A DNA stretch of 64,000 bases from NCBI GenBank assembly GCA_000002435.2, contig CM018793.1. One strand, written 5' to 3'. The notes below the pieces were generated by a model, which had not been told where the DNA came from, did no database searches, and saw only the letters and a program-made list of their open reading frames with translations. Source of the DNA: Giardia intestinalis (lineage: Eukaryota). Positions 1,219 through 21,100 of this stretch are shown here, piece by piece; position 1 is the first letter of the stretch; every line of letters begins with the position of its first letter. The translations under genes were made by a program, and so were the position numbers.

Positions 1219-4200
1219 CTATACGTTATCTGCAGATGGCATAAGGGTTAGAACTGGTAGCACCATGCTCTTTCCTGTAAAGGGACTGAATATGCAGCGC
1301 AGGGCAGATACAGTACTGCTTCTGCTTATCAGGAGTACCTCGGGCGTGTGCTCCCCATGATCTAGATAGCTTTGGCGGCGGCGCTTCCACTCATTCAAAG
1401 TCTCAGAATTGCTGCACAAGGCTTCGTTTCCGGTAACGCAGAAAAGCGCCATATCCTTATATTCGTTAAGACTATCCGTTGAAATCACGTTAGACACAGC
1501 GAACTGTACATCAGAGTACCTCTCCAGAAGCTTGTTGCACGAGCATATTAGATCGCGAGCAACGGAAAATAGTCCCACTCGAAGTGCAGCAACTCCCCCA
1601 AGGTAGTACGAGAGCACGGCTGCTGTTTGGGTGGATAGTTCAACTGGACTAAGAGGGTAACCCCGAATCAAGTTGTAGAGGCAAGCAAGCTCTATAGACT
1701 GCAACTCCCACTTGGGGTCCCTAAGAGCAGCCAGGACGAATGCATTGATTTTAGCTGTCAATGCTCCAAAGATATGTTCTATGGCGTGAACGATAGAAGG
1801 AGCAGAGGGGTGTGAGGCTAGTCTATAGGCTCGCCCAATGTATACAGAAAGAGAGTGGGGATCCAAGAGTCCTGATCCACTCTGAAACAGTTCTCGTGGA
1901 CTCTTTCCATAGAGATTAATCTCAACCAGCTCGGTATCTGCAAGTGCATCTGCACTATCTCGGTCAGATGCTGTATCATATGGAAAATAGGTCTTTGCAA
2001 GAAGAAGGGTTTTGACGTAATACAATCCACGCAATATCCTTCCAGCGTGGATGAAAGAAAACCAACTTGGCAGGTAAATGCCGTAGCAATCAACGGGCCT
2101 GGCGGTTGCCTGGCGACCACGCGCAGCAGACAGCAGAAGATCTAGCATCTCGCTGCCCAGGCTCGATTGGATAACGAGTTCTGCTGCACCGTAAATACTC
2201 ATAAAGTCTCCCTGTAGTGGATCTGAAAGAGTCAATAGTGCAGCAGGAAACGCTTCTCCCGTAAGTACTAGGATTCTACACGCGAGTTTGGCATTGTTTT
2301 CAGCGACGAGCTCAAGGGCAGCCTTAATAGACTTTCCATTTGCTAAGAAGTTCATAGCCGTATGGTACATAATAAGAGTGCGTAGATGCAACGAAAGATC
2401 CGTGTCCTCCACTTTGTATGCAATAATCTTGGCCAGGGTCGTTTCTCCGCTGACACAGCACTCGTAGCATGCCTGCCGAATAAGGCTGTAGCTGCCCGTG
2501 AGAGTATGAACAATTTGCCCCAGAATTATCAGCTCAATAAGTGGCGTAATCATTTCCTTTAGGTTCATCCTTACCTGCAGAGATGTAGAGGCAACGGTCT
2601 CAGTGATGGTTGAGGCAAGCTCTTGGCGTGCTTCAGGGGTCGGCAAGAGAGGCATTAGCATAGTCAGATACTTATCTGCCCGCAAATACTTAAACAATTC
2701 CATCATGCACGGGACATCGCCCAATGCAACGAAAAGCTTAAGGGCAATTAAAAACTGGTGTTTGTATGCTTCAGACTTAAGTGTGGGCTGCTTCCGGACA
2801 AATTCATAGAATTGATATTTTGTTTTAGAGAACCCGGGATCAGTTTCATAAATAGGAGCCTTTGAAGATGTCAAACTTTTCATGCAAAGCTTGGCCAGAT
2901 TCAGGGCCTCCCAAAGGAGAACCGGGCCAGTCGCCACAATACCATCTGTCACCAAAAATTCCTGCAGAGCTAGCTCATGAGTTACGACCCTTTTGGGACT
3001 GAACACATCAGTTGAGGCAAAGAGCAAGTAGTCAAAGAGCTTCATTAGCTGAAGAATCCCTGCATCGACAGGATAAAATAGAGAGAGTATAGCCCCGAAA
3101 ATCCTATTCGGAGAAAGCTGAACTGGCAAGAGTTCAGAAGATGCCGAAGCATCCTTGCTGGACGTATTCAATGTTGTTGCAAGCAGCTCTCCCCGTTCTT
3201 TGCTTGCAGACCCTGCAAGGAGGGCAAGAGCATGAGATAGCTCGGGCCCGTTGGTAGAAGAGTATGACTTCTTAAAATTGTGATAGAGAAGCGGTTCCTC
3301 TGTTGCAATACGACAAATGCTATTATATGCGTTTAAAATAAGGCCTTGAGCTTCGGTGCTAGAGGCGTCCGTTAAATATTCGGCAACATCCTCAAGTGTA
3401 TAGTCACGACTGCCAGGCTGCGCCCTGTTCTGTGCAAAAAACGCGGACAGAGCCCCAAGCGTTGCATGCATCATAGCTCGTTGTCCCAATTCCATGCCCC
3501 TTATATGAATTCTGCGGATAGTTACGTCTCGTGAGCTCACCACCATTTCAAATGGATAAGATGGAGAAATAGAGATCCCATAGACATCAGACTTGAAAGA
3601 AAAGCACGCCAGCTCAATGCCTGCAAGCCAATTCCATGCCCTGATTGTTGTATCCCATGATCCACTGAAGAGAATGTGTGGCAACTCTGGATGGAACTTC
3701 AATGGCCGTACGCGACTTGTATGCCCCTTAAGAGTACTGATGGCTGATATGCGTAGTGAAGTCTGGCTCCGTTTTGATTCAGGTACAATGTCTGCAGGGC
3801 AAGAGCCATCAGACAACAAGATGGGTCCTGTGCTGATGGGTGTACCAAAGGATAGCCTGAAGACTCTGATGGTACCATCATGGGAGGATGTAGCCAAAAT
3901 GTCAGCAATAAGGGGATGAAATACAACCTTAAAGCAACCGCTGTCGTGTGCCTTGAAGGATCCTAGATGAGGCACCGGAACAAGCTTTGATAATTTCAGA
4001 TTCAACTCTGATGCACGAAAGCGTATAGCTGACTCATCCATGTTTAGGTACCCCACATCATAGATATGTACCTTTCCATCTTCAGAAGCACATGCCAGAA
4101 GTGGGAAGTACGGTGAAAAGGCAAGCCCGTAAAGTGGAAACCTCCCAGATACAAATTCTATGTAATTCTTGGTGAAGTCAGCCGATGTAAATCCAGTGGT

Positions 4201-6069
4201 GGAAAGCCCTAGCTGAACAGAGCGGTTAAAGGGGTAAATCCGAGCCTTACCATCTAAGCTTGACGTGGCACAGAGGCACCCATATGAGTTAGTCCATGCA
4301 TTGGAGATGACCCTGCCAGCGTGTGTTTCCAAGACCGCATAAATAGAGCCCCTCCAGACATCCACAATTGCACTTGCTCCATTGTGAGAAGAGAGCAGAG
4401 CAAGGCATGACGCCGGGCGAGGGTCCCAGCTAGCACAGATTAGAGGCCCCAGAAACCGCGATGTATCGACAGCTCCACCATCAACCTTTAATCCCGTGGT
4501 AATGCTGGCTTCGCTAATAGACGCATTCTTACCCATATTGGTTATATGATTACCTCCAATACTGCCAAACTGGCCCTCCAGAGATGTTCCAGTGGAGTCT
4601 ATCCGCCAAAGCTTTGCCGTGCAATCAGCCGACAGTGAAATGTAGAACTTAGTGAGCTCCTCGTGGTAGCACACATCCAGAATAGATTCTATGTGGCTTG
4701 GATCCGTTTTATGGTTTATAGTGTATTGATTGCAATCAATCGAGAAGATAGATCCTGTGGATGTACATCCAACAAGATATGTGATGGTCATAGAAGCACG
4801 CTTTGTTGGAGACGTCGGGGAATGTGCACTATCTAAAGAAGAGCCCTGAAAGAATGAATCAATACTGAGGAAGTCGTTGTCGCTATAAAGATTGGTTCCT
4901 CCCTCCTTTTGTAACGGCTCAGAACACCGGAGAGCGAGAATGTCTAGCCCACGGGATACGACAATTGTGTGATGCACCTCATTGACGGATAGCTCAGTGC
5001 ACTCTGTATCATCAAGGGTTTTGGCAAGTACATTAATATTGCAGATCTTTATAATTCCAGAGGAAAACCCAATCGCAATTAACCCTGGCTTATGCCGAAG
5101 GAAGCACGCGCAGCGTACTCCATCTATCTTGCGCCGACCAGTCAAGCGAGTAGGAACAGGAACAAAATCATGCAGCAATAATGTCCCGCAGGAATACACG
5201 CTTAATACTAAACGCGAGAAATTCTGATTAAACGGGTCAACGTCCACCGATAGAGCGCTTGAGTAGTTAACACCAAACTGCAAGAGACCCGGTGTCAGAT
5301 AGATCATGGCAGCACTATTAGAGGTTAGCTTGACTCCGGTATTAGTAGCTAACTGATATGCATTATATCCCACAGGAAGTTGCGTGTCTGCTTTCAGGTC
5401 TAATCCGAGAAACTTGTAACGCTGCTTGTCAGTAGTCAATGCCTGATAATCATCTGATGAGATCGCTGCATACAAAGCCTCTGCACCTTTTTGTAGCATG
5501 AAGAGGCGTCCACTAAGGAGTCCGCCAAGTAGAATACCACTACTCGGATTGTCTCGAGTTTGTATGCCTACTTGTGCACTTTCAAACTTCACCGCTCGCA
5601 AGATATTGGTGTGCAAATAGTCGGGGAGTGATGCATGTACAACCTTGTTCGTCTCTGTGTCCAGAATGCCCAAAATGTCATGCAGTCTAGAAACGAGAAC
5701 CAGGTAGCGGTCACCAGCTCCCGCAAAGTCGGCAACGTCAAAGCACGGTACGCTAGAACTTCTGCTAGCATAGTCTTCATCGTATATCTTCAAGCCCACC
5801 TGTACTGTGTTGATGGGGTGTGTGAGATGGGGAACCTGGAAAAAAGTGCACTCTCCTGACCTCATAATAGCGGCGAGAACTCCTTTGGTGTTGCATGCAA
5901 TCGCTGAAATCCCCGATTTGCTTGTAAACGAAGAAATATGTCGGCGGAAGGGAATGTCTAATATAACTACTGTGGTTGTTGATGCATAAATAGCATATCT
6001 ATCATAGCAGGAGATCGTATTCGGTGTGTATAGGCCGCACCCTGGATGGGTGCACTGCCATTCTTGCAT
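1219..6069 (-). CDS. Large WD40-repeat plus alpha-solenoid (TPR-like) protein, about 1616 aa, with coat/IFT-like architecture
   Basis: Very long ORF. The track start at 6135 is GTG, and the first in-frame ATG is at 6067-6069 (MQEWQC...). WD40 signatures are present, for example GHTSRVRPLKFHPELPHILFSGSWDTTIRAWNW and SSHDGTIRVFRL. The C-terminal half is helical repeat. The sequence alone does not assign a family. Confidence 0.6.
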   Translation of the reverse strand: MQEWQCTHPGCGLYTPNTISCYDRYAIYASTTTVVILDIPFRRHISSFTSKSGISAIACNTKGVLAAIMRSGECTFFQVPHLTHPINTVQVGLKIYDEDYASRSSSVPCFDVADFAGAGDRYLVLVSRLHDILGILDTETNKVVHASLPDYLHTNILRAVKFESAQVGIQTRDNPSSGILLGGLLSGRLFMLQKGAEALYAAISSDDYQALTTDKQRYKFLGLDLKADTQLPVGYNAYQLATNTGVKLTSNSAAMIYLTPGLLQFGVNYSSALSVDVDPFNQNFSRLVLSVYSCGTLLLHDFVPVPTRLTGRRKIDGVRCACFLRHKPGLIAIGFSSGIIKICNINVLAKTLDDTECTELSVNEVHHTIVVSRGLDILALRCSEPLQKEGGTNLYSDNDFLSIDSFFQGSSLDSAHSPTSPTKRASMTITYLVGCTSTGSIFSIDCNQYTINHKTDPSHIESILDVCYHEELTKFYISLSADCTAKLWRIDSTGTSLEGQFGSIGGNHITNMGKNASISEASITTGLKVDGGAVDTSRFLGPLICASWDPRPASCLALLSSHNGASAIVDVWRGSIYAVLETHAGRVISNAWTNSYGCLCATSSLDGKARIYPFNRSVQLGLSTTGFTSADFTKNYIEFVSGRFPLYGLAFSPYFPLLACASEDGKVHIYDVGYLNMDESAIRFRASELNLKLSKLVPVPHLGSFKAHDSGCFKVVFHPLIADILATSSHDGTIRVFRLSFGTPISTGPILLSDGSCPADIVPESKRSQTSLRISAISTLKGHTSRVRPLKFHPELPHILFSGSWDTTIRAWNWLAGIELACFSFKSDVYGISISPSYPFEMVVSSRDVTIRRIHIRGMELGQRAMMHATLGALSAFFAQNRAQPGSRDYTLEDVAEYLTDASSTEAQGLILNAYNSICRIATEEPLLYHNFKKSYSSTNGPELSHALALLAGSASKERGELLATTLNTSSKDASASSELLPVQLSPNRIFGAILSLFYPVDAGILQLMKLFDYLLFASTDVFSPKRVVTHELALQEFLVTDGIVATGPVLLWEALNLAKLCMKSLTSSKAPIYETDPGFSKTKYQFYEFVRKQPTLKSEAYKHQFLIALKLFVALGDVPCMMELFKYLRADKYLTMLMPLLPTPEARQELASTITETVASTSLQVRMNLKEMITPLIELIILGQIVHTLTGSYSLIRQACYECCVSGETTLAKIIAYKVEDTDLSLHLRTLIMYHTAMNFLANGKSIKAALELVAENNAKLACRILVLTGEAFPAALLTLSDPLQGDFMSIYGAAELVIQSSLGSEMLDLLLSAARGRQATARPVDCYGIYLPSWFSFIHAGRILRGLYYVKTLLLAKTYFPYDTASDRDSADALADTELVEINLYGKSPRELFQSGSGLLDPHSLSVYIGRAYRLASHPSAPSIVHAIEHIFGALTAKINAFVLAALRDPKWELQSIELACLYNLIRGYPLSPVELSTQTAAVLSYYLGGVAALRVGLFSVARDLICSCNKLLERYSDVQFAVSNVISTDSLNEYKDMALFCVTGNEALCSNSETLNEWKRRRQSYLDHGEHTPEVLLISRSSTVSALRCIFSPFTGKSMVLPVLTLMPSADNV

Positions 6070-6080
6070 TTTTTTAAGGT

Positions 6081-6974
6081 ATGAATGCAGAAGCCACAGA
6101 AGTCTTGCAACACTGCTCGCCTCTTCAGCGGACACGAACGTACAGGTGCTTATATATCAATAACGCCATTGAGGATGGCAAAATCATAGTTCCAGAGTTG
6201 ATATACGAGTCCAAGTACACACCCAACACAGTCACAGCGCTTCTTCAGCATGCGGAGGCGCGCAAAAAATATGCTTCAGGCAACCCCATTGGCCGGAACA
6301 AGCGTCCTCTTCAAAGCAGACAGGCATCCATTCTGAGAAAGAGCGATTATATAACACCAATTTCCGCGCCCTCTACTTCTCCACATCAGCGTCCATTCCT
6401 TCCTAACATCGGACGACCCGGTGCCAAACCTTTGTCTTCTGCCAGTGCGCATATCTCTAAGATAGCAACTACAGCTAAGCATGAAACTCCTGTGTCCCCG
6501 ACACTCACTTCTACCCCACACTTCCTTGAAGCTAACCACATTGTGCAGCTGACATTCACTCCAGATGGTACCCACAGTTCACAAGCGTTTTCACCAAGCA
6601 GGGTGGCTCCAGGAAGTCCTACTATAAAGACCCCTAAGCAGTTCTTGGACGTTTCACCGCACAGCTCTATTAAGTCCCACCTGAAAGACCGGCCAGAACA
6701 CAGAGCTGATCAAAACTCTTTATTAGGCGCAGGGCACCTGCATACTCCAGCCCCATCTCGTGTACATAGTCGCTTACAAGGTACCAATTCTGCCCTTGGT
6801 GTTGCTCCAGACAATAACATTCCTTCAAAGTACAAGGGTAGCACAAAGGCTCCAAGTGTAGACCCAGGCTTTTCTGTCCGAAGTGTTGTTAATGATCTTT
6901 TAGCGTTGCCTACTCCTCAAATACATTGCACATCACCCTCTCTTCGCATGCGCTTTCTAAACAGTAACCAATGA
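6081..6974 (+). CDS. Hypothetical Ser/Pro/Thr-rich protein
   Basis: ATG at 6081 lies 11 bp from the divergent start of the WD40 gene. It is the only ORF in an otherwise 1.4-kb gene-free stretch. Low complexity, no recognisable domain. Confidence 0.4.
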   Translation: MNAEATEVLQHCSPLQRTRTYRCLYINNAIEDGKIIVPELIYESKYTPNTVTALLQHAEARKKYASGNPIGRNKRPLQSRQASILRKSDYITPISAPSTSPHQRPFLPNIGRPGAKPLSSASAHISKIATTAKHETPVSPTLTSTPHFLEANHIVQLTFTPDGTHSSQAFSPSRVAPGSPTIKTPKQFLDVSPHSSIKSHLKDRPEHRADQNSLLGAGHLHTPAPSRVHSRLQGTNSALGVAPDNNIPSKYKGSTKAPSVDPGFSVRSVVNDLLALPTPQIHCTSPSLRMRFLNSNQ

Positions 6975-7529: not shown

Positions 7530-9146
7530 ATGACTTCGCCATCTTTTCAGGAGCGCTCAAACGAGCTTGATGCTGCTTATTCAGCGCTCACAGAAGCTTC
7601 CTTTGATGAATACAAGGCCAAAACAGTCCAGTTTCTGGATAGCTACCCCTACTGTTATGAGTATTGGAAGAAGCTTGCAAGTGCAGCTCTCCAGTATCGT
7701 AACATGGAGGAGGCCTTGCTGATATACCAGCAAGCCATAGATACCATTCCGTATTGCTGGCAGCTTTGGGCTGGATATATAGGCTTTGCCAAGCAATGTG
7801 GTGCCACCCCTGCCTACTCGCACGCGTTTACTCCAGAGGTTATTATTCAGCTCTATCGCTTAGCTCTTGATGAGTACGTTGGAGAGATATACATGTCCAC
7901 AACCCTTTGGAAAGATTATCTCCAATTTTCTGTCGACCAGGTACTGGCAAGCAACGAACTCGATCAGGAGGCTGTTACTACTATTCTGAACACTTATATG
8001 TACATATTCACCGGGGCTGCTAAGTCCGATTCGTCTGCACTAGGCGTTATATTGAGAACCTCCGCCATAACTCTCTTAAATCTATATGAAAAACACCTCA
8101 ATCTTGTAATAAATAAGTTTCCCTCTGTCGGGGATTTTGGCCAGCTGCTATCCAAGGCCAAAGGTGCTTTTAGAGAATGCTACGACACAGATGCAGCTGT
8201 ACAACGGTTGTCCCTGTATGCGTGCATTGATAAGCGATCGTTTTATCACCACAGCCCATTCAAGCCAGAGCTGCTGGGTCGCTTTCGAGCACTTTACAGA
8301 GTACTCGTAGACGACTTGGCTACACCAGACAGAAGCAGTTGGACATCTGCAGAAGTCCAATCCGTCCTCTGTATATGTTGTGACTACGTTGACTTCTGGG
8401 TACTTTATATTAGAGCTCTTGTCCACAGCCAAGCGTATGAAGAGGCGCTTAATGTCTGCAACACTGCATTGTCCAGGTGCCACACTGGGTCCTCTGGCGC
8501 TATCTTATCGGCACTTCACATTGAGAAACTTCAAATCTTGGAATTGCAGAAGGATATGCCGGCATTAGATGATCTTGTCGTGTGCCTGTCAAATGACTTT
8601 TCAGGAGACCCCCTCGTTGTCTTAGCCCTGGCAAAGCACTGTTATAGGCAACAAAATTATGATAAGTGCATTGATATCATCTGCCAGTATGTTAATAGTA
8701 ATGCTAATTGTGGTGAATCCGTCACTGTATTGCGATCAATTTGCCGGCTCTTAAGCGCCTCGTTCTTTGCTAATCTCGATAAAAAGGACCCAGATAAAGT
8801 GATGGAGCAGACATTATCTAAGTTAGACAGTATCTATGCAAATATATTGAAGACGTCTTCTCTCCCCAGGGATGGAGTCAAGATGTTGGCTGTGGAGCGG
8901 ATGATCTCGGCACAGACAGCACGTGAAGTAGGATATCCATGTTATTTCACCCGCGTAAGGGATATTATTTACCGCGATTACTCAGAAGATCCCGATATCC
9001 TCGAAGCAGCTCTTTATACTCATATGCAGTGGCTGCAACTCCACGGCCAACTAACCGAAATTATTGAAGCAGAGGCACTTTTGCTTAGAGCTGTTCCTAG
9101 CCATCTATATTCTTATGTAGATGTCGTAGCCAAGAGCGCATCTTGA
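7530..9146 (+). CDS. HAT (half-a-TPR) repeat protein, Prp39-like (U1 snRNP-associated splicing factor)
   Basis: N-terminal YPYCYEYWKKLASAA and IPYCWQLWAGYIGF closely match the Prp39/PRPF39 signature YPYCYGYWKKYAD ... IPLSVDLWIHYINF. The rest is helical repeats. Bounded by an ATG start and TGA stop. Confidence 0.6.
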   Translation: MTSPSFQERSNELDAAYSALTEASFDEYKAKTVQFLDSYPYCYEYWKKLASAALQYRNMEEALLIYQQAIDTIPYCWQLWAGYIGFAKQCGATPAYSHAFTPEVIIQLYRLALDEYVGEIYMSTTLWKDYLQFSVDQVLASNELDQEAVTTILNTYMYIFTGAAKSDSSALGVILRTSAITLLNLYEKHLNLVINKFPSVGDFGQLLSKAKGAFRECYDTDAAVQRLSLYACIDKRSFYHHSPFKPELLGRFRALYRVLVDDLATPDRSSWTSAEVQSVLCICCDYVDFWVLYIRALVHSQAYEEALNVCNTALSRCHTGSSGAILSALHIEKLQILELQKDMPALDDLVVCLSNDFSGDPLVVLALAKHCYRQQNYDKCIDIICQYVNSNANCGESVTVLRSICRLLSASFFANLDKKDPDKVMEQTLSKLDSIYANILKTSSLPRDGVKMLAVERMISAQTAREVGYPCYFTRVRDIIYRDYSEDPDILEAALYTHMQWLQLHGQLTEIIEAEALLLRAVPSHLYSYVDVVAKSAS

Positions 9147-9166: not shown

Positions 9167-9179
9167 TCTAAAAGCCAAC

Positions 9180-12100
9180 ATGGCGTCCCACTGTTTGAAT
9201 ATGAAGGCAGCCTTCGGGTTTAATAAGGATCTCATGGGTGGCGTGCATTCTCTGTTTGATGAGACTCGAGAAGCCATTCTTTTTCCCTCCTCTCACACAC
9301 TTGTTTACCATGACTGCAGAAACGGATCCCAGCGCTTTCTTCAAGGCCACTCTAATATGATCTCTGCTGTGTGCGTCTCCAATGATAAACGGTGGATTGT
9401 TTCGGCCGATTTTGGGGGAAAGGATACGATGATCATAGTCTGGGAGTCTAAGACCCTTCTCCCCGTTCGGACAATAGTGGATCAAGTTCCTGGAGGTGTA
9501 ATCCGGATGGATCTTTCCGATGACGGCGCTCTTCTCGCAGTTTTGTCCGGTGCCACTCCAAATGCCGCCAAAGTTATGAGCCAATCTCTCTTTCTCTTTG
9601 AGTGGTCCAACCCAGATGAGCGCCCTGTAGTTTCGGTAGAAATTCCTCCTCAGCTAGGGTTTCAGCGAGATGTGCGGTTTAATCCTTGTGATTACCGTGA
9701 AATAGTCACTAACTCTGCTTATCGGACTGTGTTCTGGTTGTGGGAAGAGCAGCTTGTTGACAAGGACTTGATCAACGTGCTGAGCTACCACTCACCAGAC
9801 ATTCACGTAGGAGACTTCAAGGCTTTACCTTCTGTGTTCACTGTAAGTTGCTTTCTACCCGGCACAACAGCAGCACTCACAGGCACTGTTGCTGGAGAGG
9901 TGGTTCTCTACGATGTCAACGGAAGAGCATTTTCAGACGGGTTAACCGGGAATGCGCCAGTGCGTCGCGTGCCCATTAAGCTCTTAACACTCCATGCCAG
10001 CTCTGGAAATGTTCAGGCGATAGCTGCTAACGATGAGATCATGGAAAAAGACGAGACTGTCATAGCAGAAAGTTACACAGCATCGGGGGAGTTTGGAACT
10101 ACTCCGTTCTTGGTTCCTGGGCAGCCGTTCTTTCAGGCGCTAGTGAGCAACAACAAAATGAATCAGCGCGCTGCCTTTTACAAATACTTAACAGCGGCTC
10201 AGCAAGCTGCAGGTCAGATGACCACTTCTCCAACCGCAGCCTTTGCTCAGGCCATCACTTTTATCTGTGCTCGCTCAGATGGATTTATAATCACAGGAGG
10301 CCTTGATGGGTGTGTACGGATGTTTGACTTTCGTTTGCGCCTTCTATCGTGGTATGAAAATCTTGCATGCGGACCAATCACATCTGTCTCCATTGCAATG
10401 CCCCAGCATTCATCAAATAAGGATGGCTTCCAAGGAGGAGATGCCGACATAAGCATTTCTGCAGTGGCTCTCTTGCCTGGCGCAACACCACGGGAATATG
10501 CCAGTAAGTCTGAAGCGCTCCACGCCAAGTTTGGTAGCGTCGTTTTAAGAGACTTTATTGTTGGAACTAGTAGAGGCTCTATTGTACTGGTTCCAGCTGC
10601 TCTCTTCGAGTTTGTCGAGCCTAGCAAACGACGAGGGACATTACTCTACCAAGGCATACCACATGCTACATCGTGCACCTATACGCCTCGAGACACGCGA
10701 GATCTCCCCATAAGGCTTAACTACAATCTGAAAACTCAGGCATCGTTGCCTCTTTCATGGGTGGCGACGATGAGGGGAGACATGTTGCTATTTGACTTTA
10801 CTAGCAATAAGATCCTTCGGTCCATTTCGCTGGCTGGTCACATCGCAGCGACAGAATCTGGCAGCAAACGCTTGTCGGGGACTCTTGCCCAACGCCACGC
10901 AGAGGGCTATGAGCAGGCGTGCTACTTAGTTCCTGAACACCCTCTGGCGCCTCTCAAGACGCAGTCGTATGCACATATCACAGCACTTTCTCTCTTCTGT
11001 CCTGCAGACGCTAGCAGACCCGTGCTACTTGCTGGGACTTCGGTAGGTAGCTGTTTGTTGATGGATCCGTTCACTCTCCAGGTATTAAGCACGTTTCGGC
11101 ATCTCAGCCGGACAAAGACCATACCGCTCTTGTGCCCATTCTTGAAAAGGAAGTCTATCTCGATTCCTGCCCAAATAACCTACGTAAAGTTTTCAAGAGA
11201 AGGCGACATAATCGCTGTACTAGATGAAACGTCCTTCCTTACGCTCCTGACAAAGTCAATATCAGATGAACCGGCAAAAGATCTAACGACAGGAAGAATC
11301 ACAACCGCCAATGACGCCACTGAAAAAGCATTTAATTATAGCACATACTCAGACATATTCCTTACGTCCCTTGTAACACCACTTCAGGCGCCCCCAGTGT
11401 TCATCACAGATGCAGACGATGCTAAGCAGTCAGAGCAAAGTAAAGAGAATGAAACAAGGACTGCCTCTGGTGTCCGGTTGCAACCTGCAGCTCTCTTGGC
11501 CCGTGCTTCTCAAAAGAAGCGGGCAGATGCATCCACAACTGGTCAGTGGACTTCCCTAGGAAGGTTAGTCATTACCAATAACGCCATTCTACGTGCAGTG
11601 ATCTATTGCGACTTTTTACCGACTAAACTAGTTGAGGGAGGACGCGACCCTTTGGTTTTGCTGAGCAAGGATCGCTTCTTTACCATTATAGACATAGACA
11701 AAACCCTTGTGAGTCATGATCTGATTGTTGTTCACTGTAGATTCAGAGCAGAGCAGAGCGCCACACCGACCGCCGTTTGCTTCCTTCCACGGCCGCCATA
11801 CTATGTATCCACATTGACAGAAGAGGAAAGGAACGCAGAGATTGATAAGTTGAATTCTGAGCAAAACGTTCTAAGCAGAAGCCTTAAGGAGGCGTTGTTC
11901 AGCTTACAATCTGAGGACAGCGGGGCTCTCTGTGCTAAATATAGACCGGACTTGCAGCCTATTGAGCAGCGAAATCTACTCCTCATAGCAAACAGTCATT
12001 ATAAGTTTCGTCTTCGAGAAATAGAGGCTCTTCCTGGAGCCTTAGAGCTATCGAATCGAACCGTTTTCCCCGCGTCTCTGTTGACCACGGCACCACAGTT

Positions 12101-13526
12101 GTGCGCATATTTTACGGGTGGGTACACTCCGCAAGGACAGCTACCCAATTCTGCCATACTGCAGGGTCCGCAATATTGTGTCAATCCCAACCTTGCAGGG
12201 CCCTATCCGCTGCGCCGCACTGTTCTGGCACCGACATATGGTCTTCCGATCAATATTCTTAGACACATCTCGGCCTACATGAGCGACTCACGACATGACC
12301 TCTCCAGCTGCACACCAATTCTGCAGACAACTAGCACGGAAGAGAGGTATAGATACCGAACACGTTATGAGACCTTGAACTCTGCTGGTGCAATCCGTCA
12401 CATTGCGCAGTACATAGCGTTTGCCACACCTCGCAAGGTCATCGGGCTCATGCGTACTCCTCTTGATGGAGCATCACACAGGTACATGGGTCTGATTGGC
12501 CATGCAGGAGAGGTATTGAGTCTCGACGTGTGCTTCTGCTTTAGTCCCGGCTTGGACGCGGGGAATACCTTCTTAGTGAGTGCAGGGTCTACCGACTTTG
12601 CCCTGTTCCTATGGGGGGTTGACTATCCTACTTTTGACCTAATGATAGATAGTACGGTGACCGTGTCATCGACTGGGCAGCAAAGTGGGCCGATTACTGG
12701 CCCAACTGCCACCGACTTCGCCTCATTCGATCCTTTCACAGCGCAGCTAGAGGGCGGCCCAACTGGCCAATTCTACGCAGAAATTCAGGACTACTTTAGC
12801 TATGCACAGATCAACGATTCAGAAGAAAAAGGCATCACTCCCAAAGAAGACGCTCGTGCTCCTGTGAGCATGCTCGACGAAATACTACGGGCTCTGGGCG
12901 TCTTCATATCCAACTCGGCAATGGTGGATGCCAAGGGGGAGATCATCGAGGAAGCTATTCGTGCCGCCCGTCTGCGGTTCTTCCTCTCTCGGTTACGTGC
13001 TGCACTGAAAGAAGGCAAGCCCCCAATTTTGGTTGAAGCCACGGCATTCGGCTATAACCCTCTAGAAGACTCTAACCAGGAGACCAGAGTCATGAGCGAG
13101 ATGAGTCTATATGAGCAAAGCGAGTCCGGTCTGTGGGAGCTTGTTGGCGCCGATGACGTGACCCTGTCCTTACAAGAGTTCGTTAGGATCCTGGTCAATC
13201 ACCGTCCGGTTTTGCCATATAAAATGGAGGACATCGTCCGTGCATTCACTGTCTTTGGGGCAGATGAAGCTGTTGGTGTCCTAGACAAGGCAACATTGAT
13301 TAACGCTCTCGTAAACAACGGAGAGAGCTTTTCAGGTGGTGAGCTGATGGATGCATTGAGTATTCTTGCCGGGGGAGGCACATCCAGCGATACTTTGATG
13401 GGCGCTGGGGGGCTGCTGCCCGATCAGGTCTCTGTCATCGACTTTGCCAACACTATTCTAGGCTTCGAGACTGACCAGCAATCTGAAGGGAGGTCGATGG
13501 TACAGGAAGTCGAGGGGGGCGACTAG
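9180..13526 (+). CDS. WD40-repeat protein with a C-terminal degenerate EF-hand pair, a CFAP251/WDR66-like candidate axonemal protein
   Basis: N-terminal WD repeats, for example GHSNMISAVCVSNDKRWIVSADFGGKDTMIIVWES. The C-terminal segment RAFTVFGADEAVGVLDKATLINALVNNGESFSGGELMDAL follows the calmodulin C-lobe pattern [39 protein letters not shown]. The ORF is 1448 aa. Confidence 0.45.
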   Translation: MASHCLNMKAAFGFNKDLMGGVHSLFDETREAILFPSSHTLVYHDCRNGSQRFLQGHSNMISAVCVSNDKRWIVSADFGGKDTMIIVWESKTLLPVRTIVDQVPGGVIRMDLSDDGALLAVLSGATPNAAKVMSQSLFLFEWSNPDERPVVSVEIPPQLGFQRDVRFNPCDYREIVTNSAYRTVFWLWEEQLVDKDLINVLSYHSPDIHVGDFKALPSVFTVSCFLPGTTAALTGTVAGEVVLYDVNGRAFSDGLTGNAPVRRVPIKLLTLHASSGNVQAIAANDEIMEKDETVIAESYTASGEFGTTPFLVPGQPFFQALVSNNKMNQRAAFYKYLTAAQQAAGQMTTSPTAAFAQAITFICARSDGFIITGGLDGCVRMFDFRLRLLSWYENLACGPITSVSIAMPQHSSNKDGFQGGDADISISAVALLPGATPREYASKSEALHAKFGSVVLRDFIVGTSRGSIVLVPAALFEFVEPSKRRGTLLYQGIPHATSCTYTPRDTRDLPIRLNYNLKTQASLPLSWVATMRGDMLLFDFTSNKILRSISLAGHIAATESGSKRLSGTLAQRHAEGYEQACYLVPEHPLAPLKTQSYAHITALSLFCPADASRPVLLAGTSVGSCLLMDPFTLQVLSTFRHLSRTKTIPLLCPFLKRKSISIPAQITYVKFSREGDIIAVLDETSFLTLLTKSISDEPAKDLTTGRITTANDATEKAFNYSTYSDIFLTSLVTPLQAPPVFITDADDAKQSEQSKENETRTASGVRLQPAALLARASQKKRADASTTGQWTSLGRLVITNNAILRAVIYCDFLPTKLVEGGRDPLVLLSKDRFFTIIDIDKTLVSHDLIVVHCRFRAEQSATPTAVCFLPRPPYYVSTLTEEERNAEIDKLNSEQNVLSRSLKEALFSLQSEDSGALCAKYRPDLQPIEQRNLLLIANSHYKFRLREIEALPGALELSNRTVFPASLLTTAPQLCAYFTGGYTPQGQLPNSAILQGPQYCVNPNLAGPYPLRRTVLAPTYGLPINILRHISAYMSDSRHDLSSCTPILQTTSTEERYRYRTRYETLNSAGAIRHIAQYIAFATPRKVIGLMRTPLDGASHRYMGLIGHAGEVLSLDVCFCFSPGLDAGNTFLVSAGSTDFALFLWGVDYPTFDLMIDSTVTVSSTGQQSGPITGPTATDFASFDPFTAQLEGGPTGQFYAEIQDYFSYAQINDSEEKGITPKEDARAPVSMLDEILRALGVFISNSAMVDAKGEIIEEAIRAARLRFFLSRLRAALKEGKPPILVEATAFGYNPLEDSNQETRVMSEMSLYEQSESGLWELVGADDVTLSLQEFVRILVNHRPVLPYKMEDIVRAFTVFGADEAVGVLDKATLINALVNNGESFSGGELMDALSILAGGGTSSDTLMGAGGLLPDQVSVIDFANTILGFETDQQSEGRSMVQEVEGGD

Positions 13527-13586: not shown

Positions 13587-16500
13587 ATGTCTGCTTTACA
13601 CAAAGATACTAGAAGGATAGGCCCCAAGAGGACTCTTAGCAGGGATTCTATTACAGGAGAGGCAGTTTTACTGGTTGAGCTGCCTATTTTGGAGCATGAT
13701 ACCAGCGATTCATCGGATTTACTACGACACATTCAGTTTTTACGGTATTCGAGGTCTAGATACATCCTAGACGTCAAAGCCATTACTTATCAGTCGGATA
13801 GCATACTCATTGTCATGGAATGCCCAAGAGGCGGGTCGTTACGGGCACATTTCGATGAATCCATAGCAATTTTACGAGAATATGAGGAACATGAGCTGTG
13901 GCGACTTCTGACGCAACTAAGCGAGATAGTTATGCATATAGGATTTTTATATACGTCCAATGCTATGCACATAGACCCAATTATTACTCCAGACACTTTA
14001 TTCTATGATTCCTACGGAAACCTGCAATTAGATCTAGTCTATTCGTTAGAATATTTAATTAGAATTACTGGTAGATTCGAGCCATCGCCCCAGGACCAGA
14101 ATGTTCAACGCTACAGGGACAAGGTAGCGACTGTGAACTGCGATGTATCTGAGACCTGCATAGCGTATTCTGTTGGGGCCATCCTTTACGAAGCTATTCT
14201 TCTTGGACTGGCTTCTTCTGTCCCAGCATCTACTTGGCCGTGTTATGTACAGTTTCAAGCCAATTCAAGGTTTGTCAATTCGATATCACACAGCTCGGCG
14301 CACGCAAAAGTCCTCCTAGAGTACGAACAATGGCGTAAGTTCTTTTCTCTGTATGGGCTTTGCAAAGAAAGCTATCGCATATGTTTGACAAGAACACCCT
14401 ATTTTATGAAGGTCCTGGAGTGCTTGAAGGGGTTGAGCAACACTTTCACATTGCTCGGAACATGCGTTGATCGTGTTGGAATCTTCAAGCCAGTTCTTCA
14501 GGATATTATTCCACGAGATTTAGGTCTGCTGCTGTCTCCTCACTATCCACCCGTTCTCCCTATAGATTGGCTGGAGGATAGAGGCACGTCCCTATGCATA
14601 GAATTACTTATAGATGAATTGGTGGAGCAACTTAGCAGTATGCTATTGACACCATGGATAGAAAGGGAGCGGCCGATAATATACACCGAGTTACGCGCCA
14701 AATACTCTCAGAGCCTGCTAGCCTTACTTGAGGGGATGTTATCTAATACTCCCGAAAAGCGTACTACGGTTGCCACTGCTGTTACACACCCCCTAGTGCA
14801 GACATCGTATCACGTTGACACCCCGCTGATGTTAGCAGCAAAGCATGGAAATGTCGGAGCGCTTACGAGCCATCTGCGGGAATATGTACGGCGAAACGAT
14901 GGGACTAACAACACTGCCCTGATTCATGCTGTATTATCCAGGCAATACGAGGCAGCTCTCCTCCTTGCTCCCCATGAGGCCGGCGCCGTCAATGCTGACG
15001 GGAAGAATGCATCATACTATCTTCTTGACGCTTGTACCAGTGCAGACTCTGCTCTTTCTGAAACTGAGCAAGAGATACTTCGCAGGCTGACTCCTATTCT
15101 TGCTACTCATGAGTCTCAATGGATATTTGCAGAGAAGAAAACTCTCCTAATGCTAGCTGCTTCTGCCAACAACATGACGTTTGTAGAGCATTTTGCTGCC
15201 AGCGAGTCTGCAATGACGGACTCTAGCTCCATGTGCAGTGCGGAGTATGCATTGCAATCGCGTGCTAAGGATGCCTTTATTCGGCTAGTGAAAAAGGAAC
15301 ATAACTTACTGATATCTGCAGGGTATACACCCCTCATGTTAGCTGCAGCTAGTAATGATGTCTTACAGCTCAAGAGTGAGCTTGAAGCAAGTAGTGCTTC
15401 CATTGGAAAGTATTCTCCACAAGGGTACACAGCATTGATGATAGCAGTTATCATGCAAGCAAGCCAGGCCGTGGAGATTCTTATCGCTCATGAAGCACGA
15501 ATACAATCAACCCCCTCTCGACAGACGGCTCTAATGCTAGCGGTTACATCTTCATTGGAAGATATCGCGCTTTTGCTTACTGAGAGAGAAGGAGGGCTCA
15601 AGACGTTTACTGGCAAGACTGCGCTAATGTATGCAGCCGAGCGTAATATGATTAGGCTTGTTGACACACTTGTTGATGTAGAGGCAGGGCTTAAGGACCT
15701 GCAGCTAAATACTGCACTGATGCTAGCTGCTATCTCCAATAGTTCAGAGGCCGCGGCTCTTTTATTACCCAAAGAGGCGTGTCTCCTCAATAGAGAAGGG
15801 CTAACAGCGCTTATGTTAGCTGCCCAACGAAACAATATAGAGGCTCTACGCGTCATTTTACCGTACGAGTCCAGTATAAAGTCACCAGCAGGAGGAGCTA
15901 CTGCATTGATTCACTCTGTATATTGCGGTAACGCTGAGGCTGTGAAGGTCCTAGCGCGTGCTGAGCCTGGATTTAGAAATCAGAGTAATGAGACAGGCCT
16001 GGAGATTGCTCGCAGGCAGAGGAGACGGGACCTTGTTTCGATTTTAGAAGAACATGAAACATTCAATCGACATGAGGATGGGCTTACGCCGCTTATGGTA
16101 GATGCAATTAGAAACGACGTCTCGTCTGTCAAGAGACACATCAAAGCATATGAGGAGAGCTTAAAAGCAGCACCTGCAACCGGCGTGTCTTCGCAAATAG
16201 GACTGCGGGATAACTACGGAAAAACGGCACTCATTCATGCCGTTGAGAACTCTTCCATGGAGGTCGTCGCACTTCTGGTAGACTATGAATTGGGGTTTCG
16301 GGACCACTCGGGCTACTGCGCCATTTACTATTCCCTCTTTGCCGAACAACAACTGGACGATGAGCTATTTTGTAGGCTATTTGACGTCGAAAAGGGTATT
16401 CTGGAGGACGCTGGCTTCACTCCTCTGATGATGTCTGTACTTATGCGCAACACCACAGTTGCTCTTTTGCAAATAGAACACTACGCTACGATAAGTACCA

Positions 16501-17111
16501 AGGATGGATATACAGCTCTTATGCTGGCAGCAATCTTGGGTAACGTGGATATGGTGGAGCTCTTATGCCCGCTAGAGTCAGGGTGCCAAACGAACACTGG
16601 ATACACTGCACTAATGTTTGCAGTAGAGAGGAATGACCTGGAGACAGTGCTAATCCTCGTTGAGAGTGGAAAAGAGCTCGGGTTGCAGGAAAAGACTGGG
16701 TGGACGGCATTGATGATGGCAGCCAAGAACGGCTACTTGAAACTGGCAGCGCTGTTGGCCCCTCATGAACATGGTTATCATGATGCAATGGGCTGTACTG
16801 CTCTGCTTCGAGCCGTCCAAGGCAACCATTTCAGTGTCGTACAGGTCCTAGCAGACTATGAAGAGGGTTTGACTACCACAGATTGCTACCCCAGGGGATG
16901 TGGTTGGACACCTCTTTTCGAGGCAGTGTACAACGGCTACCCTAATTGCGTGGCATTTCTCATTGAGAGAGAGGTTGAAGTGCTGAACCATTCTGCCCAC
17001 GATCTTCTCATGTGTGCACAAAACCAGCGCTCTAATGTCCCGCTAGAGAGAAGACTTCTGTGCAAGTCTATTATACATGAATTTATCAACCAAAGAAGTA
17101 CAAGAATCTAA
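13587..17111 (+). CDS. NEK-like pseudokinase domain fused to ankyrin repeats (Giardia NEK / Protein 21.1-type)
   Basis: The N-terminal roughly 250 aa are kinase-like (LIVMECPRGGSLRAHF; catalytic-loop region HIDPIITPDTLFYDSYGNLQLDLV) but the HRD and DFG motifs are replaced. The C-terminus carries more than 15 ankyrin repeats with the TALMLAA/TPLMLAA signature. AT-rich start context. Confidence 0.7.
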   Translation: MSALHKDTRRIGPKRTLSRDSITGEAVLLVELPILEHDTSDSSDLLRHIQFLRYSRSRYILDVKAITYQSDSILIVMECPRGGSLRAHFDESIAILREYEEHELWRLLTQLSEIVMHIGFLYTSNAMHIDPIITPDTLFYDSYGNLQLDLVYSLEYLIRITGRFEPSPQDQNVQRYRDKVATVNCDVSETCIAYSVGAILYEAILLGLASSVPASTWPCYVQFQANSRFVNSISHSSAHAKVLLEYEQWRKFFSLYGLCKESYRICLTRTPYFMKVLECLKGLSNTFTLLGTCVDRVGIFKPVLQDIIPRDLGLLLSPHYPPVLPIDWLEDRGTSLCIELLIDELVEQLSSMLLTPWIERERPIIYTELRAKYSQSLLALLEGMLSNTPEKRTTVATAVTHPLVQTSYHVDTPLMLAAKHGNVGALTSHLREYVRRNDGTNNTALIHAVLSRQYEAALLLAPHEAGAVNADGKNASYYLLDACTSADSALSETEQEILRRLTPILATHESQWIFAEKKTLLMLAASANNMTFVEHFAASESAMTDSSSMCSAEYALQSRAKDAFIRLVKKEHNLLISAGYTPLMLAAASNDVLQLKSELEASSASIGKYSPQGYTALMIAVIMQASQAVEILIAHEARIQSTPSRQTALMLAVTSSLEDIALLLTEREGGLKTFTGKTALMYAAERNMIRLVDTLVDVEAGLKDLQLNTALMLAAISNSSEAAALLLPKEACLLNREGLTALMLAAQRNNIEALRVILPYESSIKSPAGGATALIHSVYCGNAEAVKVLARAEPGFRNQSNETGLEIARRQRRRDLVSILEEHETFNRHEDGLTPLMVDAIRNDVSSVKRHIKAYEESLKAAPATGVSSQIGLRDNYGKTALIHAVENSSMEVVALLVDYELGFRDHSGYCAIYYSLFAEQQLDDELFCRLFDVEKGILEDAGFTPLMMSVLMRNTTVALLQIEHYATISTKDGYTALMLAAILGNVDMVELLCPLESGCQTNTGYTALMFAVERNDLETVLILVESGKELGLQEKTGWTALMMAAKNGYLKLAALLAPHEHGYHDAMGCTALLRAVQGNHFSVVQVLADYEEGLTTTDCYPRGCGWTPLFEAVYNGYPNCVAFLIEREVEVLNHSAHDLLMCAQNQRSNVPLERRLLCKSIIHEFINQRSTRI

Positions 17112-17148: not shown

Positions 17149-17970
17149 ATGGCAGACGATCCTTGTAAAGTATATGTGGGTGGAGTCCCCACAAACGTAA
17201 CCGAAGCGGAAATAGAGGACAACTTCAAGAAGTTCGGCAGAGTTACAGACGTGGTCGACACCAAAAAGGGTTTCTTTTTCGTCACGTTTAACAGCCCTGA
17301 TGCCGCAAAGCTTGCCCTTATGGGGGATGTCACATTTGATGGTCGCAGATGCAAGGTAGAGATTGCAAGACCTAAGAAGCCAGAGTATACAGATAGGGAC
17401 AAGTTTTCTCGCCCGGAAAGAGTTCCATTCAAAAGAGATTATCCCGATCGTCGCCCGTTCTCTTCTCGCGAACAAGGAGATCCTTATCGCCCTATGCGTG
17501 ACGAGCATTACTCCCGTCCGGGGCCCAGAGATGTCCGCCCACAAAGGTCCGCTGAATACGATTACCCTCAGTGCTCCTTCAATTTTGCTGTACGGAACCT
17601 CCCTCCGTCGCTTTTGGCTATCTCTCCATTCAAGCAGTTCGTTCTCGACAACTATGGAGCCACGGATTACACCATAGTGTCGTCCGAGGTCGACGTCGGA
17701 TATTTTGGCTCCAACTCGAAGGAAACAGAGGACAGGGTCAATGAGAAGAGCTCAATTAACTATGATGGGTGCAGATTAGTGATAGAGCCGTACAAGCGTG
17801 GGCCCGGAAGGATTGCGCATCGACAGGCTAGGTCGGATCACTTTAGTCGTCCACAATGGGTAGGAAAATCAACCGAAGATGAGTACGATTTTCCAATAAA
17901 CGTTCAAGAGTCTAGATCGAACGACAACGACTATGCTTACAACCCTTCTGCGGAGCAGATGCAGGAATGA
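17149..17970 (+). CDS. RNA-binding protein with an N-terminal RRM and an Arg/Asp/Tyr/Pro-rich tail
   Basis: RNP-2-like VYVGGV and RNP-1-like KGFFFVTF are within the first 60 aa. The tail is low complexity, rich in RDYPDRRPF / RPGPRD. Confidence 0.7.
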   Translation: MADDPCKVYVGGVPTNVTEAEIEDNFKKFGRVTDVVDTKKGFFFVTFNSPDAAKLALMGDVTFDGRRCKVEIARPKKPEYTDRDKFSRPERVPFKRDYPDRRPFSSREQGDPYRPMRDEHYSRPGPRDVRPQRSAEYDYPQCSFNFAVRNLPPSLLAISPFKQFVLDNYGATDYTIVSSEVDVGYFGSNSKETEDRVNEKSSINYDGCRLVIEPYKRGPGRIAHRQARSDHFSRPQWVGKSTEDEYDFPINVQESRSNDNDYAYNPSAEQMQE

Positions 17971-18174: not shown

Positions 18175-21100
18175 CTAAGAGCTGTGATGAAGAGCATTTG
18201 ATTTGGTCTTCGAATGGCGTGACTTATGAATGTGCGGATGGCCTCCGGGGTTCTTACTGGTAGTTAACTTTCTTAAATGAGCAAGCTCGCTTGATAGAAG
18301 GCTAATGGTTAAGGGAAGCTCCCGCACAACATGATAGATAAAAGTGCTGAGCTGCTCAACATCAAAGTTTGATGAGGCGTGAGCACGTTCTGTGAGCTCA
18401 TATGTCCATCGCTTCACTGCAGCCTTGAACATGCACTGAGTGTCAACATTTCTTTGAAAAATGTTACTGCCAATAAGAAGGATGTGCATGACCTTATCTA
18501 TCCGGCCTCGTAGTATTGAAATAGGGTGATCTAATAGTAGCTCCATCACTCTTTGTGACTGCAACTCCTTTGTAAGATCCACACTATCACTTAACCGTCC
18601 TAGGACTGATTTGTACTCATGTTGAAGCTCAGAAACAAGTTGATCAGTTCCTTGGGAAAGGAACTTATGGACAATCTCGCTTATGCTTCCTTCTCCCCGT
18701 GGAAGTCTGTCAAACAAAAAGTAGGAAAGAATCTTCGGAATGGTGCATGATTCCCAGGTTTGGGGCGAGTATTTGGAGAAGAAGGGAGTCAGCTTAAGTG
18801 TTGTTACGGTCAGCTGGAGCTTCATGTGAGTCACATTGTTGAGCATATCAGTAACCAATCCGTTCGAGATAAGCATATCTAGAAAGTGAAACAATATGGC
18901 ATAATTAGTCAGAGCACCTATCTGTGCAAGGGGATTTGTCTCGTAGATCGACAAGGCTAAATATACACCAAAAACTATGATATCAGGTAAGAGCAGACCA
19001 CATGCTGCCGTAATACCCATGAGGACCAGCATCTCAATGTCAAAACATCGCTTTGTAGGCATGTGGTGGGCGAATATTCTTCCACAAAGCATGCCAAACG
19101 ACTTACACCTGGAGGCCAGTTTAGAGTAGGAGCGAGGCCCCATCACCGGGAGCCCATCAGTATCGGTAATCTGCAGGCCTGCAGTTTGTGCGTCCTGATC
19201 AGTTGGTTTCATGAGGAGTAGAGGCAGTTTAGAGATGGATTTGTTATTCTTGTTACCAATGTACTGTTTGAAAACGCCATGAATGAACAGATACCGCGGT
19301 ACCAACGAGTAAAGCATCGGTAACAGCGTTGTCTGCGTATAATAGTGACACATATCTCCGTACGACATGCCACATTGGGTGTTTCCGATTGTCCTAACAT
19401 TGCTCCCATTGCTCTCCTTTTGTTTCTGGATATGGGTCTGGATAGGAACACCTTTTGTGTCAGAGACCTTGGATATCATTCTCTCTAACATGCCCGGGAT
19501 GCTGTAGAAGTGAGGCGCGTTGGAAGAGAGCAAAGACCCGGCGTAGCCAGGATTTGCAAAGGTATATGCTTGCCTAAATGCATAGTACTCATTATAACTG
19601 CTATAGTACTTAGTTGTCTCGCCAAGCTTAGCACAATCTTGCGTTGCTGAATCGTAGAAAAACTTGTGAACATATGATAAAAACACCTTGATTGGCTGGG
19701 AATATATCTCTGAGGCTCTAGTCAGTGCCCCATATAGGAAAGCAATGGCTGGAATGGCGTCTTCAGAGCTCGCAATCTTCTCAATGGTGTCCAGCGTAAA
19801 TTGCGCTAAGAACCACAAAGGATTAATAGATATGTAAGCACCAGACATAAACTCTGCACCTATCTGGGTAGAGTTAGAGATGGTGAAGAGATTTGCATAC
19901 TCTATCAGCATGTTTTCAAAGTTAGCTGAGGGGACTGTGGAACGTATTGCTAGAGTAAAAATATGCGATTCCTGATCGAGGAAAGAGAAAAAAGAATGCT
20001 TAGAGGTGCAGGAAGGCGGGTCCTGCCAACAAAAAGACAAGTCCGCACACTTAGAAAAGCGCGACCTGACCGCCTCTTCGTAGATTGATAAGAAATCCTC
20101 GGACGCATCTTCAAGCGAGTCCTTAAGCGAGAGACAGCCCATTTGCAGATGGTAGCCAGCATGGATGTACTGTCGTTCAGAGAACTCACTTTCTCGAAGT
20201 TCCTCCATGATAAACCTACAATTGGCATTTAACATAGGAAAATCCAGCGAAAAGGCCGCCGCGATATCTGTTGGCAAAGAGCTGGACTTCTGATTGCCAA
20301 GTCCTTGATCATAGATAGCCTTCATATGTTCTTTAACCCAGAAGAGATTGGATGTAAAGCGGCCGGAGAACAGACCAGAATCACCAAAGAACCAATTCCG
20401 AATGCGAAAGGTGTCTTCTTCCAGACGCTGGACCTTTCTGGCAAATGCATTGAGACTGGAAACGCTTTTGCTGAAATTAGAAACAAGTTCCCGTATGCGC
20501 AAAAGGTTATCCACTGCTTCCTTCTGCCCAGACTCATCAATCTCCTTCAAGAGCTGGGCTAGATTGTTGCTGTGCTCAGCACGCCTTATAACCAGAGCTT
20601 CCTTTTTGCTTTCAAGGCTGTTCAGACACCCGTTTACCTGATCGCATTGTAGATCGCTATAGATCTGCATCGGGCCTGTGGTCGTTGTGTAGTGAGTAGG
20701 ACAATTGTTGAGTTCGGTAATTTTGTGATCTATGTCTTGCAGAGTGATCTTGATGGAGTCAACCTTATCTCCTAATAGACTAGTCTTTGTAGTGATTATA
20801 TTTTTGAGGGGATTGGTCGGTTCAGATAAGTTTTGTGTACGCAAATTGTGGATCTGCGTGTTGACAACTTTCTGGAGAGCATCTACTAGGGATGATAAAG
20901 CAGAAGAATCAAGGGCTTCTGGCCCGTTGAAAGCAGAATCAAATTGAGGAAGTTCTACAGAAAGGTCTATCAGAGCGCTCCCGATAGTCTGGATAGATAA
21001 TAGTAGCTGCTTCTGCTCTAAGAGAAGCTCTTTCTTCCTGGCGTTAAGAACTATAATTGACTGGTGAAGAGAAGCGTAAAGCATGGTCATAAACCACGAG

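Follow-up and report, generated by a model that had tools for sequence, protein, structure and literature searches.

In a 64,000-nucleotide stretch of Giardia intestinalis DNA (contig CM018793.1 of assembly GCA_000002435.2, hereafter the window), one open reading frame (ORF) on the + strand probably encodes the Giardia orthologue of the flagellar protein CFAP251 (also known as FAP251 or WDR66); on sequence evidence, we put the probability of this assignment at about 0.9. The ORF spans positions 9180-13526 and is uninterrupted over its 1448 codons according to the ORF list and translation, with an ATG start at 9180 and a TAG stop at 13524-13526 (Table 1), and its + strand neighbours lie 33 and 60 bases away. 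An exact-sequence search found the product to be 100% the same as a protein of Giardia intestinalis WB (XP_001708846.1 / KAE8305422.1 / UniProt A8B7N5). This entry is called ‘Coiled-coil protein’ in GenBank as opposed to ‘Cilia- and flagella-associated protein 251’ in UniRef, and the CFAP251 identity of this exact protein is thus already known through its UniProt/UniRef name. The GenBank label is uninformative and could be replaced with CFAP251, as UniProt has already done; beyond annotation, the finding matters little. The mildly new items are a set of insertions found throughout the diplomonads and a family-wide lack of calcium ligands, both described below. Discordant naming also occurs more widely: for G. 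muris and for several assemblages of Giardia the GenBank product is either ‘Coiled-coil protein’ or ‘Putative WD40 domain protein’, and UniRef gives CFAP251.

The assignment draws first on a phmmer comparison of the Giardia protein with all PDB chain sequences. The six top-ranking matches, with E-values from 4.8e-59 to 1.2e-38, were CFAP251 chains modelled in cryo-electron microscopy maps of axonemes: Chlamydomonas FAP251 (8glv_LY, E 4.8e-59), Trypanosoma brucei CFAP251 (9e5c_5c, E 2.2e-56), human CFAP251 (8j07_d2, E 6e-51), mouse CFAP251 (9d2f_K, E 4.9e-49), a bovine chain that bears the name ‘Adenylate kinase 7’ in the copy of the PDB searched (9fqr_Xj, E 1.3e-45) and Leishmania CFAP251 (9y6s_8w, E 1.2e-38). 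The aligned blocks were co-linear, covering residues 6-273, 362-406, 454-500, 1077-1247 and 1323-1433 of the Giardia protein. A word-indexed protein search recovered Giardia itself, G. muris (80%), Spironucleus (52%), Hexamita (46%) and Trepomonas (42%), and outside the diplomonads one Cyclospora CFAP251 and two generic WD40 proteins; the range of matches was the same whether the single sequence or the diplomonad alignment served as query.

A wider sample of the family was obtained with a profile of the last 289 residues of six diplomonad proteins, which was searched exhaustively with HMMER against 1.84 billion representative proteins. This search returned 409 proteins at E <= 1e-3, including 135 at E <= 1e-10. 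The full-length matches were mostly 850-1300 residues long with the matched segment at the extreme C-terminus, and most of the full-length proteins listed among the 409 end in two conserved C-terminal stretches. Forty full-length proteins taken from these matches, all of which (40/40) contain both Beta-prop_EML and Beta-prop_EML_2 in Pfam, were aligned into a family profile. We regard these proteins as bona fide CFAP251 because the matches of their profile to the six CFAP251 chains of the PDB had E-values of 0 to 5e-298, with the next WD40 protein at 7e-78. Profile-profile alignment (hhalign) of the full-length diplomonad proteins to this family profile gave a probability of 100% and E-values of 1e-137 to 1e-140 over 878-880 aligned columns that span residues 1-1437, with mean column confidences of 6.1-8.7 in the core segments. 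By sequence comparison, then, the Giardia protein is homologous over its whole length to CFAP251 proteins that have been placed experimentally.

We regard it as extremely unlikely that the protein is a CFAP251 paralogue rather than the orthologue, or that it belongs to some other WD40 family of the axoneme or cytoskeleton, be it CFAP52, CFAP43/44, CFAP57 or the EML-type microtubule-associated proteins. It is true that the EML first propeller was the best Pfam match and that CFAP52 and CFAP44 chains appeared among the PDB matches, and both of these are axonemal proteins with EML-like tandem propellers whose first blades are weakly similar to those of Giardia. However, CFAP52, the next family after CFAP251, scored only 7e-07 and CFAP44 1e-03, against 5e-59 for FAP251, and only the first one or two blades were covered. 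The whole-length alignment and the C-terminal calmodulin-like domain are common to CFAP251 proteins only; CFAP52 (WDR16) and CFAP44 have no such domain, and CFAP52 is a microtubule inner protein rather than a spoke component. Nor did the exhaustive C-terminal-domain search reveal a second full-length, high-scoring cluster beside that of Giardia, as the remaining matches at E <= 1e-30 were fragments of 114-238 aa. With scores some 50 orders of magnitude weaker and the C-terminal domain missing, membership of CFAP52, CFAP44 or EML was ruled out. Separately, the bovine chain 9fqr_Xj, a 1191-residue chain from the 96-nm repeat of bovine sperm, matched the CFAP251 family profile at E 0 over its residues 262-1183. 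Since it matches both this profile and the Giardia protein, it would appear to be CFAP251-like, and its molecule name ‘Adenylate kinase 7’ looks like a labelling error.

Judged from these alignments, the Giardia protein probably has the architecture of the CFAP251 family, in which a calmodulin-like domain forms the C-terminus behind two WD40 beta-propellers of EML type. The first propeller is the best conserved part (hhalign column confidence 7.3-8.7; block of residues 6-273 against FAP251 at a domain E-value of 2.5e-32), although it is broken up by diplomonad insertions at 273-355 and 413-435. Its boundary is approximate, having been mapped through the profile alignment from the Pfam EML / EML_2 limits of one family protein (P0030). 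Within it, a single WD40 repeat at residues 51-88 exceeded the Pfam gathering score (PF00400, E 1.6e-09, 38.3 bits against a cut-off of 27), and Beta-prop_EML matched residues 50-256 below the gathering score (E 7e-12). Beta-prop_EML_2 fell well short of its gathering score and was found only at residues 51-89, which again belong to the first propeller. The putative second propeller region is strongly diverged and enlarged by several insertions; its core segments all align to the CFAP251 family with mean confidences of 6.1-8.2 in hhalign, and its last blade (residues 1077-1159) was also aligned to the PDB CFAP251 chains by phmmer. The original prediction, made from the letters of the DNA, had the coordinates of the ORF exactly right and was also correct in taking the organism to be Giardia, and both its N-terminal propeller signal and its CFAP251/WDR66 candidate are borne out by the Pfam matches, phmmer, the profile-profile alignment and the UniRef name. 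Its expectation that such an orthologue would be hard to recognise from sequence was wrong: plain phmmer reaches E 5e-59 and UniProt already names the protein.

The C-terminal feature is a complete, four-EF-hand calmodulin-like domain at approximately residues 1194-1427. The C-terminal profile of the six diplomonad proteins matched many calmodulins in the PDB (best E 1.3e-05, with profile positions 186-239 on calmodulin residues 78-129), and its positions 52-128 matched myosin essential light chains. A profile of 46 CFAP251 C-terminal sequences aligned to human calmodulin with a probability of 97.7% (E 1.4e-12) over 141 columns in hhalign, placing calmodulin residues 5-147 on Giardia residues 1194-1427. 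An AlphaFold2 model of residues 1160-1448 (pLDDT 62.5, the predicted local confidence) consisted of successive helix-loop-helix units with short beta bridges between them. When this model was compared with the PDB using Foldseek, the same protein family again came first, with six CFAP251 chains at E 4e-05 to 9e-04, followed by calmodulin (including apo-calmodulin), myosin light chains and troponin C at probabilities of 0.9-1.0 and E-values of ∼0.02-0.1. Pfam EF-hand models gave no match in the Giardia protein at E <= 10, and just one of the six diplomonad C-termini reached EF-hand_7 (E 0.21); since these models miss the domain, Pfam alone would have wrongly refuted the presence of EF-hands. 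The original prediction had placed a degenerate EF-hand pair at residues 1250-1448. An EF-hand region at the C-terminus is real, as is its degeneracy, but it comprises four hands at ∼1194-1427 and not one pair.

The degeneracy is evident in the calcium-binding loops. For a loop to count as canonical, its 12 residues had to include D at position 1, G at position 6 and E at position 12, and D, N or S at both 3 and 5; the four Giardia loops were mapped onto calmodulin via an automatic alignment. The canonical pattern was present in none of the four loops (Table 1), and in none of the loops of 40 non-diplomonad CFAP251 proteins. Sequence comparison thus indicates a calmodulin-like domain whose four EF-hands are without canonical calcium ligands throughout the family sample. 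Because all four loops lack these ligands in Giardia as well as in the family sample, the domain is most likely not a calcium sensor but a permanent, calcium-independent clamp comparable to a myosin essential light chain or apo-calmodulin. The family-wide lack of ligands also speaks against calling CFAP251 a calcium-binding EF-hand protein, as is commonly done.

A working calcium sensor, which would make the regulation of radial spoke 3 or of dynein calcium-responsive, seems to us very unlikely. Homology to calmodulin does span all four EF-hands, the complex to which CFAP251 belongs was first isolated with anti-calmodulin antibodies (PMC9776847), and some acidic loop residues remain (D1224, D1326, D1362, D1369, E1333 and D1421). 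These residues are set in loops that depart from the canonical pattern in every case, with P and M at positions 1 and 12 of EF1; V and A at 1 and 3 of EF2; G and T at 1 and 12 of EF3, which also has a one-residue insertion; and A and G at 1 and 3 of EF4, which has a further 13 residues inserted. The failure of Pfam EF-hand models to match points the same way, as do results from Tetrahymena, where ciliary targeting needs the WD40 regions and the EF-hand-like region is dispensable (PMC4395127), and where no calmodulin pull-down was obtained.

Several observations weigh against the assignment and the domain structure given here. Pfam detected no second propeller in residues ∼550-1010, and the same residues stayed unaligned when BLASTP was run against non-diplomonad CFAP251 proteins. 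The AlphaFold2 model of residues 1-1165, for which the input was a five-sequence diplomonad alignment, was unusable (mean pLDDT 33.9, predicted TM-score 0.27). As Pfam and BLASTP miss the central region and its model is unusable, the second-propeller fold proposed for it derives only from the profile alignment. For the C-terminal domain, confidence in the model was moderate (the pLDDT of 62.5 given above), TM-scores to calmodulin were low (0.2 when normalised by the query and 0.4 by the target), and the Foldseek E-values to calmodulin were marginal (0.016). The loop-residue statistics hang on the automatic alignment. [quoted passage not shown]

A role for the Giardia protein can be proposed by homology to axonemes of known structure. 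The base of radial spoke 3 is described as consisting of CFAP61, CFAP91 and CFAP251 in structures of the Chlamydomonas and human axonemes, with CFAP91 running from radial spoke 2 past the N-DRC (the nexin-dynein regulatory complex) and linking CFAP251 and CFAP61 (PMC10266980). According to the legend of Extended Data Fig. 6c of the same work, FAP251 and FAP91 interact through the calmodulin-like domain of the former (Walton et al. 2023, PMC10266980). In mouse radial spoke 3, CFAP251 is docked by CFAP57 as the back prong (preprint 10.1101/2025.05.19.654877), and CFAP251 fails to enter mouse sperm tails that are without CFAP91 (PMC12423330). Loss of the Tetrahymena protein impairs radial spoke 3 and motility (PMC4395127). 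By analogy, the Giardia protein should sit on the doublet by its propellers and hold CFAP91 by its calmodulin-like clamp. The propellers would form the ‘back prong’ on the doublet microtubule via coiled-coil docking factors such as CFAP57, and the calmodulin-like domain would clasp, independently of calcium, a helical segment of CFAP91, whose expected path leads from radial spoke 2 to radial spoke 3 and passes the N-DRC on the way. Such a clasp would anchor the base of the spoke in the 96-nm repeat, together with the inner dynein arms d and g next to it. Among diplomonads, Giardia, Spironucleus, Hexamita and Trepomonas would all have kept the radial spoke 3 base module, and the gene offers a concrete handle with which to perturb radial spoke 3 and inner dynein arms d and g in the eight flagella of Giardia.

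Among the closest known systems is FAP251 of Chlamydomonas reinhardtii (CaM-IP4; 8glv chain LY, 906 aa), which was the best match of solved structure, co-linear over residues 6-1433 and with the first propeller, the putative second propeller and the C-terminal calmodulin-like domain in the same order. Compared to it, the Giardia protein is 542 residues longer (∼11 insertions) and its putative central propeller is far more diverged; Chlamydomonas itself has only a stubby stand-in for radial spoke 3. Human CFAP251/WDR66 (8j07 d2), the loss of which is reported to result in malformed, immotile sperm flagella, and mouse CFAP251 (9d2f K) have the propellers and C-terminal domain that are found or predicted in Giardia. 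The mammalian proteins carry an N-terminal extension of ∼240-400 residues before the first propeller, whereas Giardia is without it and has internal insertions instead. Calmodulin and the essential and regulatory light chains of myosin are alike in their four EF-hands, and the Giardia domain probably grips a target helix likewise. In contrast to these free subunits, the Giardia module forms part of a large WD40 protein; it further differs from calmodulin in having loops that are all non-canonical and below Pfam EF-hand thresholds and an extra 44-residue insertion in EF2. Further close relatives are the diplomonad orthologues, which are identical to the Giardia protein at 80% (Giardia muris, TNJ26499.1), 52% (Spironucleus salmonicida), 46% (Hexamita inflata) and 42% (Trepomonas sp. 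PC1) of positions over essentially the full length. These share all of the Giardia insertions; the only differences are those of sequence, of short indels and of how long the linker within the calmodulin-like domain is. The Spironucleus salmonicida orthologue is labelled ‘putative flagellar associated protein’, and UniRef gives the name CFAP251 to the Giardia, Spironucleus and Hexamita proteins.

The Giardia protein is ∼500 residues longer than is usual for CFAP251, and the extra length is made up of insertions that lie within the calmodulin-like domain and in loops of the propellers. In the global profile alignment to the CFAP251 family, insertions of at least 8 residues total 522 residues and lie at 273-355, 413-435, 506-522, 552-595, 643-662, 702-786, 872-927, 959-1007, 1033-1071, 1160-1179 and 1282-1325, along with a few shorter ones. 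They are present in all of the diplomonads sampled, and their identity between Giardia and Spironucleus, Hexamita or Trepomonas is 34-39% as compared to 44-59% for the core. Insertion 273-355 is 82% identical in G. muris, 42% in Spironucleus, 33% in Hexamita and 34% in Trepomonas. Segment 552-595, which holds the motif GTLAQRHxEGxEQ, is the most conserved insertion, with corresponding values of 82%, 70%, 57% and 50%.

These insertions raise the possibility that a CFAP251 homologue was partly repurposed in diplomonads, with the ∼520 inserted residues as docking sites for further structures particular to Giardia, for instance the median body or ventral disc, paraflagellar densities, or material that accompanies the axonemes along their long cytoplasmic segments. 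On this view an extra function would really lie behind the GenBank label ‘coiled-coil protein’. We consider such repurposing improbable. The insertions are held in common by Giardia, Spironucleus, Hexamita and Trepomonas at the identities given above, with segment 552-595 at 70% in Spironucleus, and several are predicted to be helical, if in a low-confidence model. Yet lineage-specific helical insertions are common in axonemal proteins (FAP61 of ciliates has a helical stretch of 400 residues; PMC4395127), and those of Giardia are in loops of an otherwise intact CFAP251 scaffold, so that an enlarged but ordinary base of radial spoke 3 is the simpler reading. It is conceivable, though still doubtful, that the ∼520 inserted residues form an extra structure on the spoke base, making radial spoke 3 of diplomonads different in architecture from that of every solved axoneme; the conserved segment 552-595 and the basic helical segment 760-786 may be the best candidates. 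If so, this structure could contact the doublet, the neighbouring dyneins or diplomonad-specific material along the long cytoplasmic axonemes. Future structures of axonemes should show where this conserved set of insertions lies.

Table 1. Features of the CFAP251 coding sequence, with positions in the window and residues of the predicted protein.
Feature	Residues	Positions	Strand	Basis or detail
Complete CFAP251 coding sequence	1448 codons plus TAG	9180..13526	+	ORF list, translation, exact database match
First beta-propeller	~1-497	9180..10670	+	phmmer blocks vs Chlamydomonas FAP251 and T. brucei CFAP251; Pfam; hhalign
Clearest single WD40 repeat	51-88	9330..9443	+	PF00400
Diplomonad insertion	273-355	9996..10244	+	gap in family profile
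Putative second, strongly diverged beta-propeller region	~498-1159	10671..12656	+	profile-profile alignment; enlarged by several insertions
Diplomonad insertion	552-595	10833..10964	+	profile alignment; invariant columns in diplomonad alignment
Diplomonad insertion	702-786	11283..11537	+	contains basic motif RTxxxVRxxPAAxLARxxQKxR
Diplomonad insertion	872-927	11793..11960	+	profile alignment, identity comparison
Diplomonad insertion	959-1007	12054..12200	+	profile alignment, identity comparison
Diplomonad insertion	1033-1071	12276..12392	+	profile alignment, identity comparison
Calmodulin-like domain, four degenerate EF-hands	1194-1427	12759..13460	+	profile vs calmodulin, hhalign, AlphaFold model, Foldseek, loop residues
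EF1	loop ~1221-1231			loop positions 1/3/5/12: P1221, E1223, D1224, M1231
Diplomonad insertion (44 residues)	1282-1325	13023..13154	+	within calmodulin-like domain, between EF2 entering helix and loop
EF2	loop and exiting helix ~1322-1340			loop positions 1/3/5/12: V1322, A1324, D1326, E1333
EF3	~1349-1385, loop 1360-1372			loop positions 1/3/5/12: G1360, D1362, A1364, T1372; one-residue insertion
EF4	~1386-1427			loop positions 1/3/5/12: A1397, G1399, T1401, D1421; 13-residue insertion in loop
Acidic, poorly conserved C-terminal tail	1428-1448	13461..13523	+	diplomonad alignment; pLDDT below 50

The surroundings of the gene were also surveyed. Two antisense ORFs with TTG starts, at 9168-9584 (-) (138 aa) and 10247-10627 (-) (126 aa), lie inside or overlap the CFAP251 coding region, and are most likely chance ORFs because that region is conserved coding sequence. 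The upstream neighbour at 7530-9146 (+) (538 aa) has HAT/TPR repeats of the PRP39 / Suf (CstF-77) / Syf1 type (Pfam HAT_PRP39_N at E 1e-19 and Suf at 1e-07) and probably encodes an RNA-processing factor. Its TGA stop is 33 bases before the CFAP251 ATG, and the spacer holds AGTAAA and an A/T-rich stretch directly 5' of the ATG. The downstream neighbour at 13587-17111 (+) (1174 aa) has a weak, partial match to a protein kinase at its N-terminus (residues 39-130, E 1.3e-07), and this part is followed by many ankyrin repeats (Ank_2, E 4e-82). A kinase-plus-ankyrin layout is common in Giardia. The small ORF at 17149-17970 (+) (273 aa) has an N-terminal RNA recognition motif (RRM) RNA-binding domain (E 5.5e-10).

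Elsewhere in the window, four long ORFs had no Pfam match at E <= 1e-05: 18175-24300 (-) (2041 aa), 38721-42098 (-) (1125 aa), 43142-46357 (+) (1071 aa) and 52663-60582 (-) (2639 aa), the last of which also had no match among PDB sequences at E <= 1e-03. Their products may be Giardia proteins specific to the lineage. At 1219-6135 (-), a further large WD40 protein (1638 aa) is encoded; its matches in Pfam and among PDB sequences were only generic WD40 ones around residues 730-920, and no specific family followed from them. Another ankyrin-repeat protein of the window is encoded at 30604-34509 (-) (1301 aa), with the repeats at its N-terminus (Ank_2, E 3e-26).

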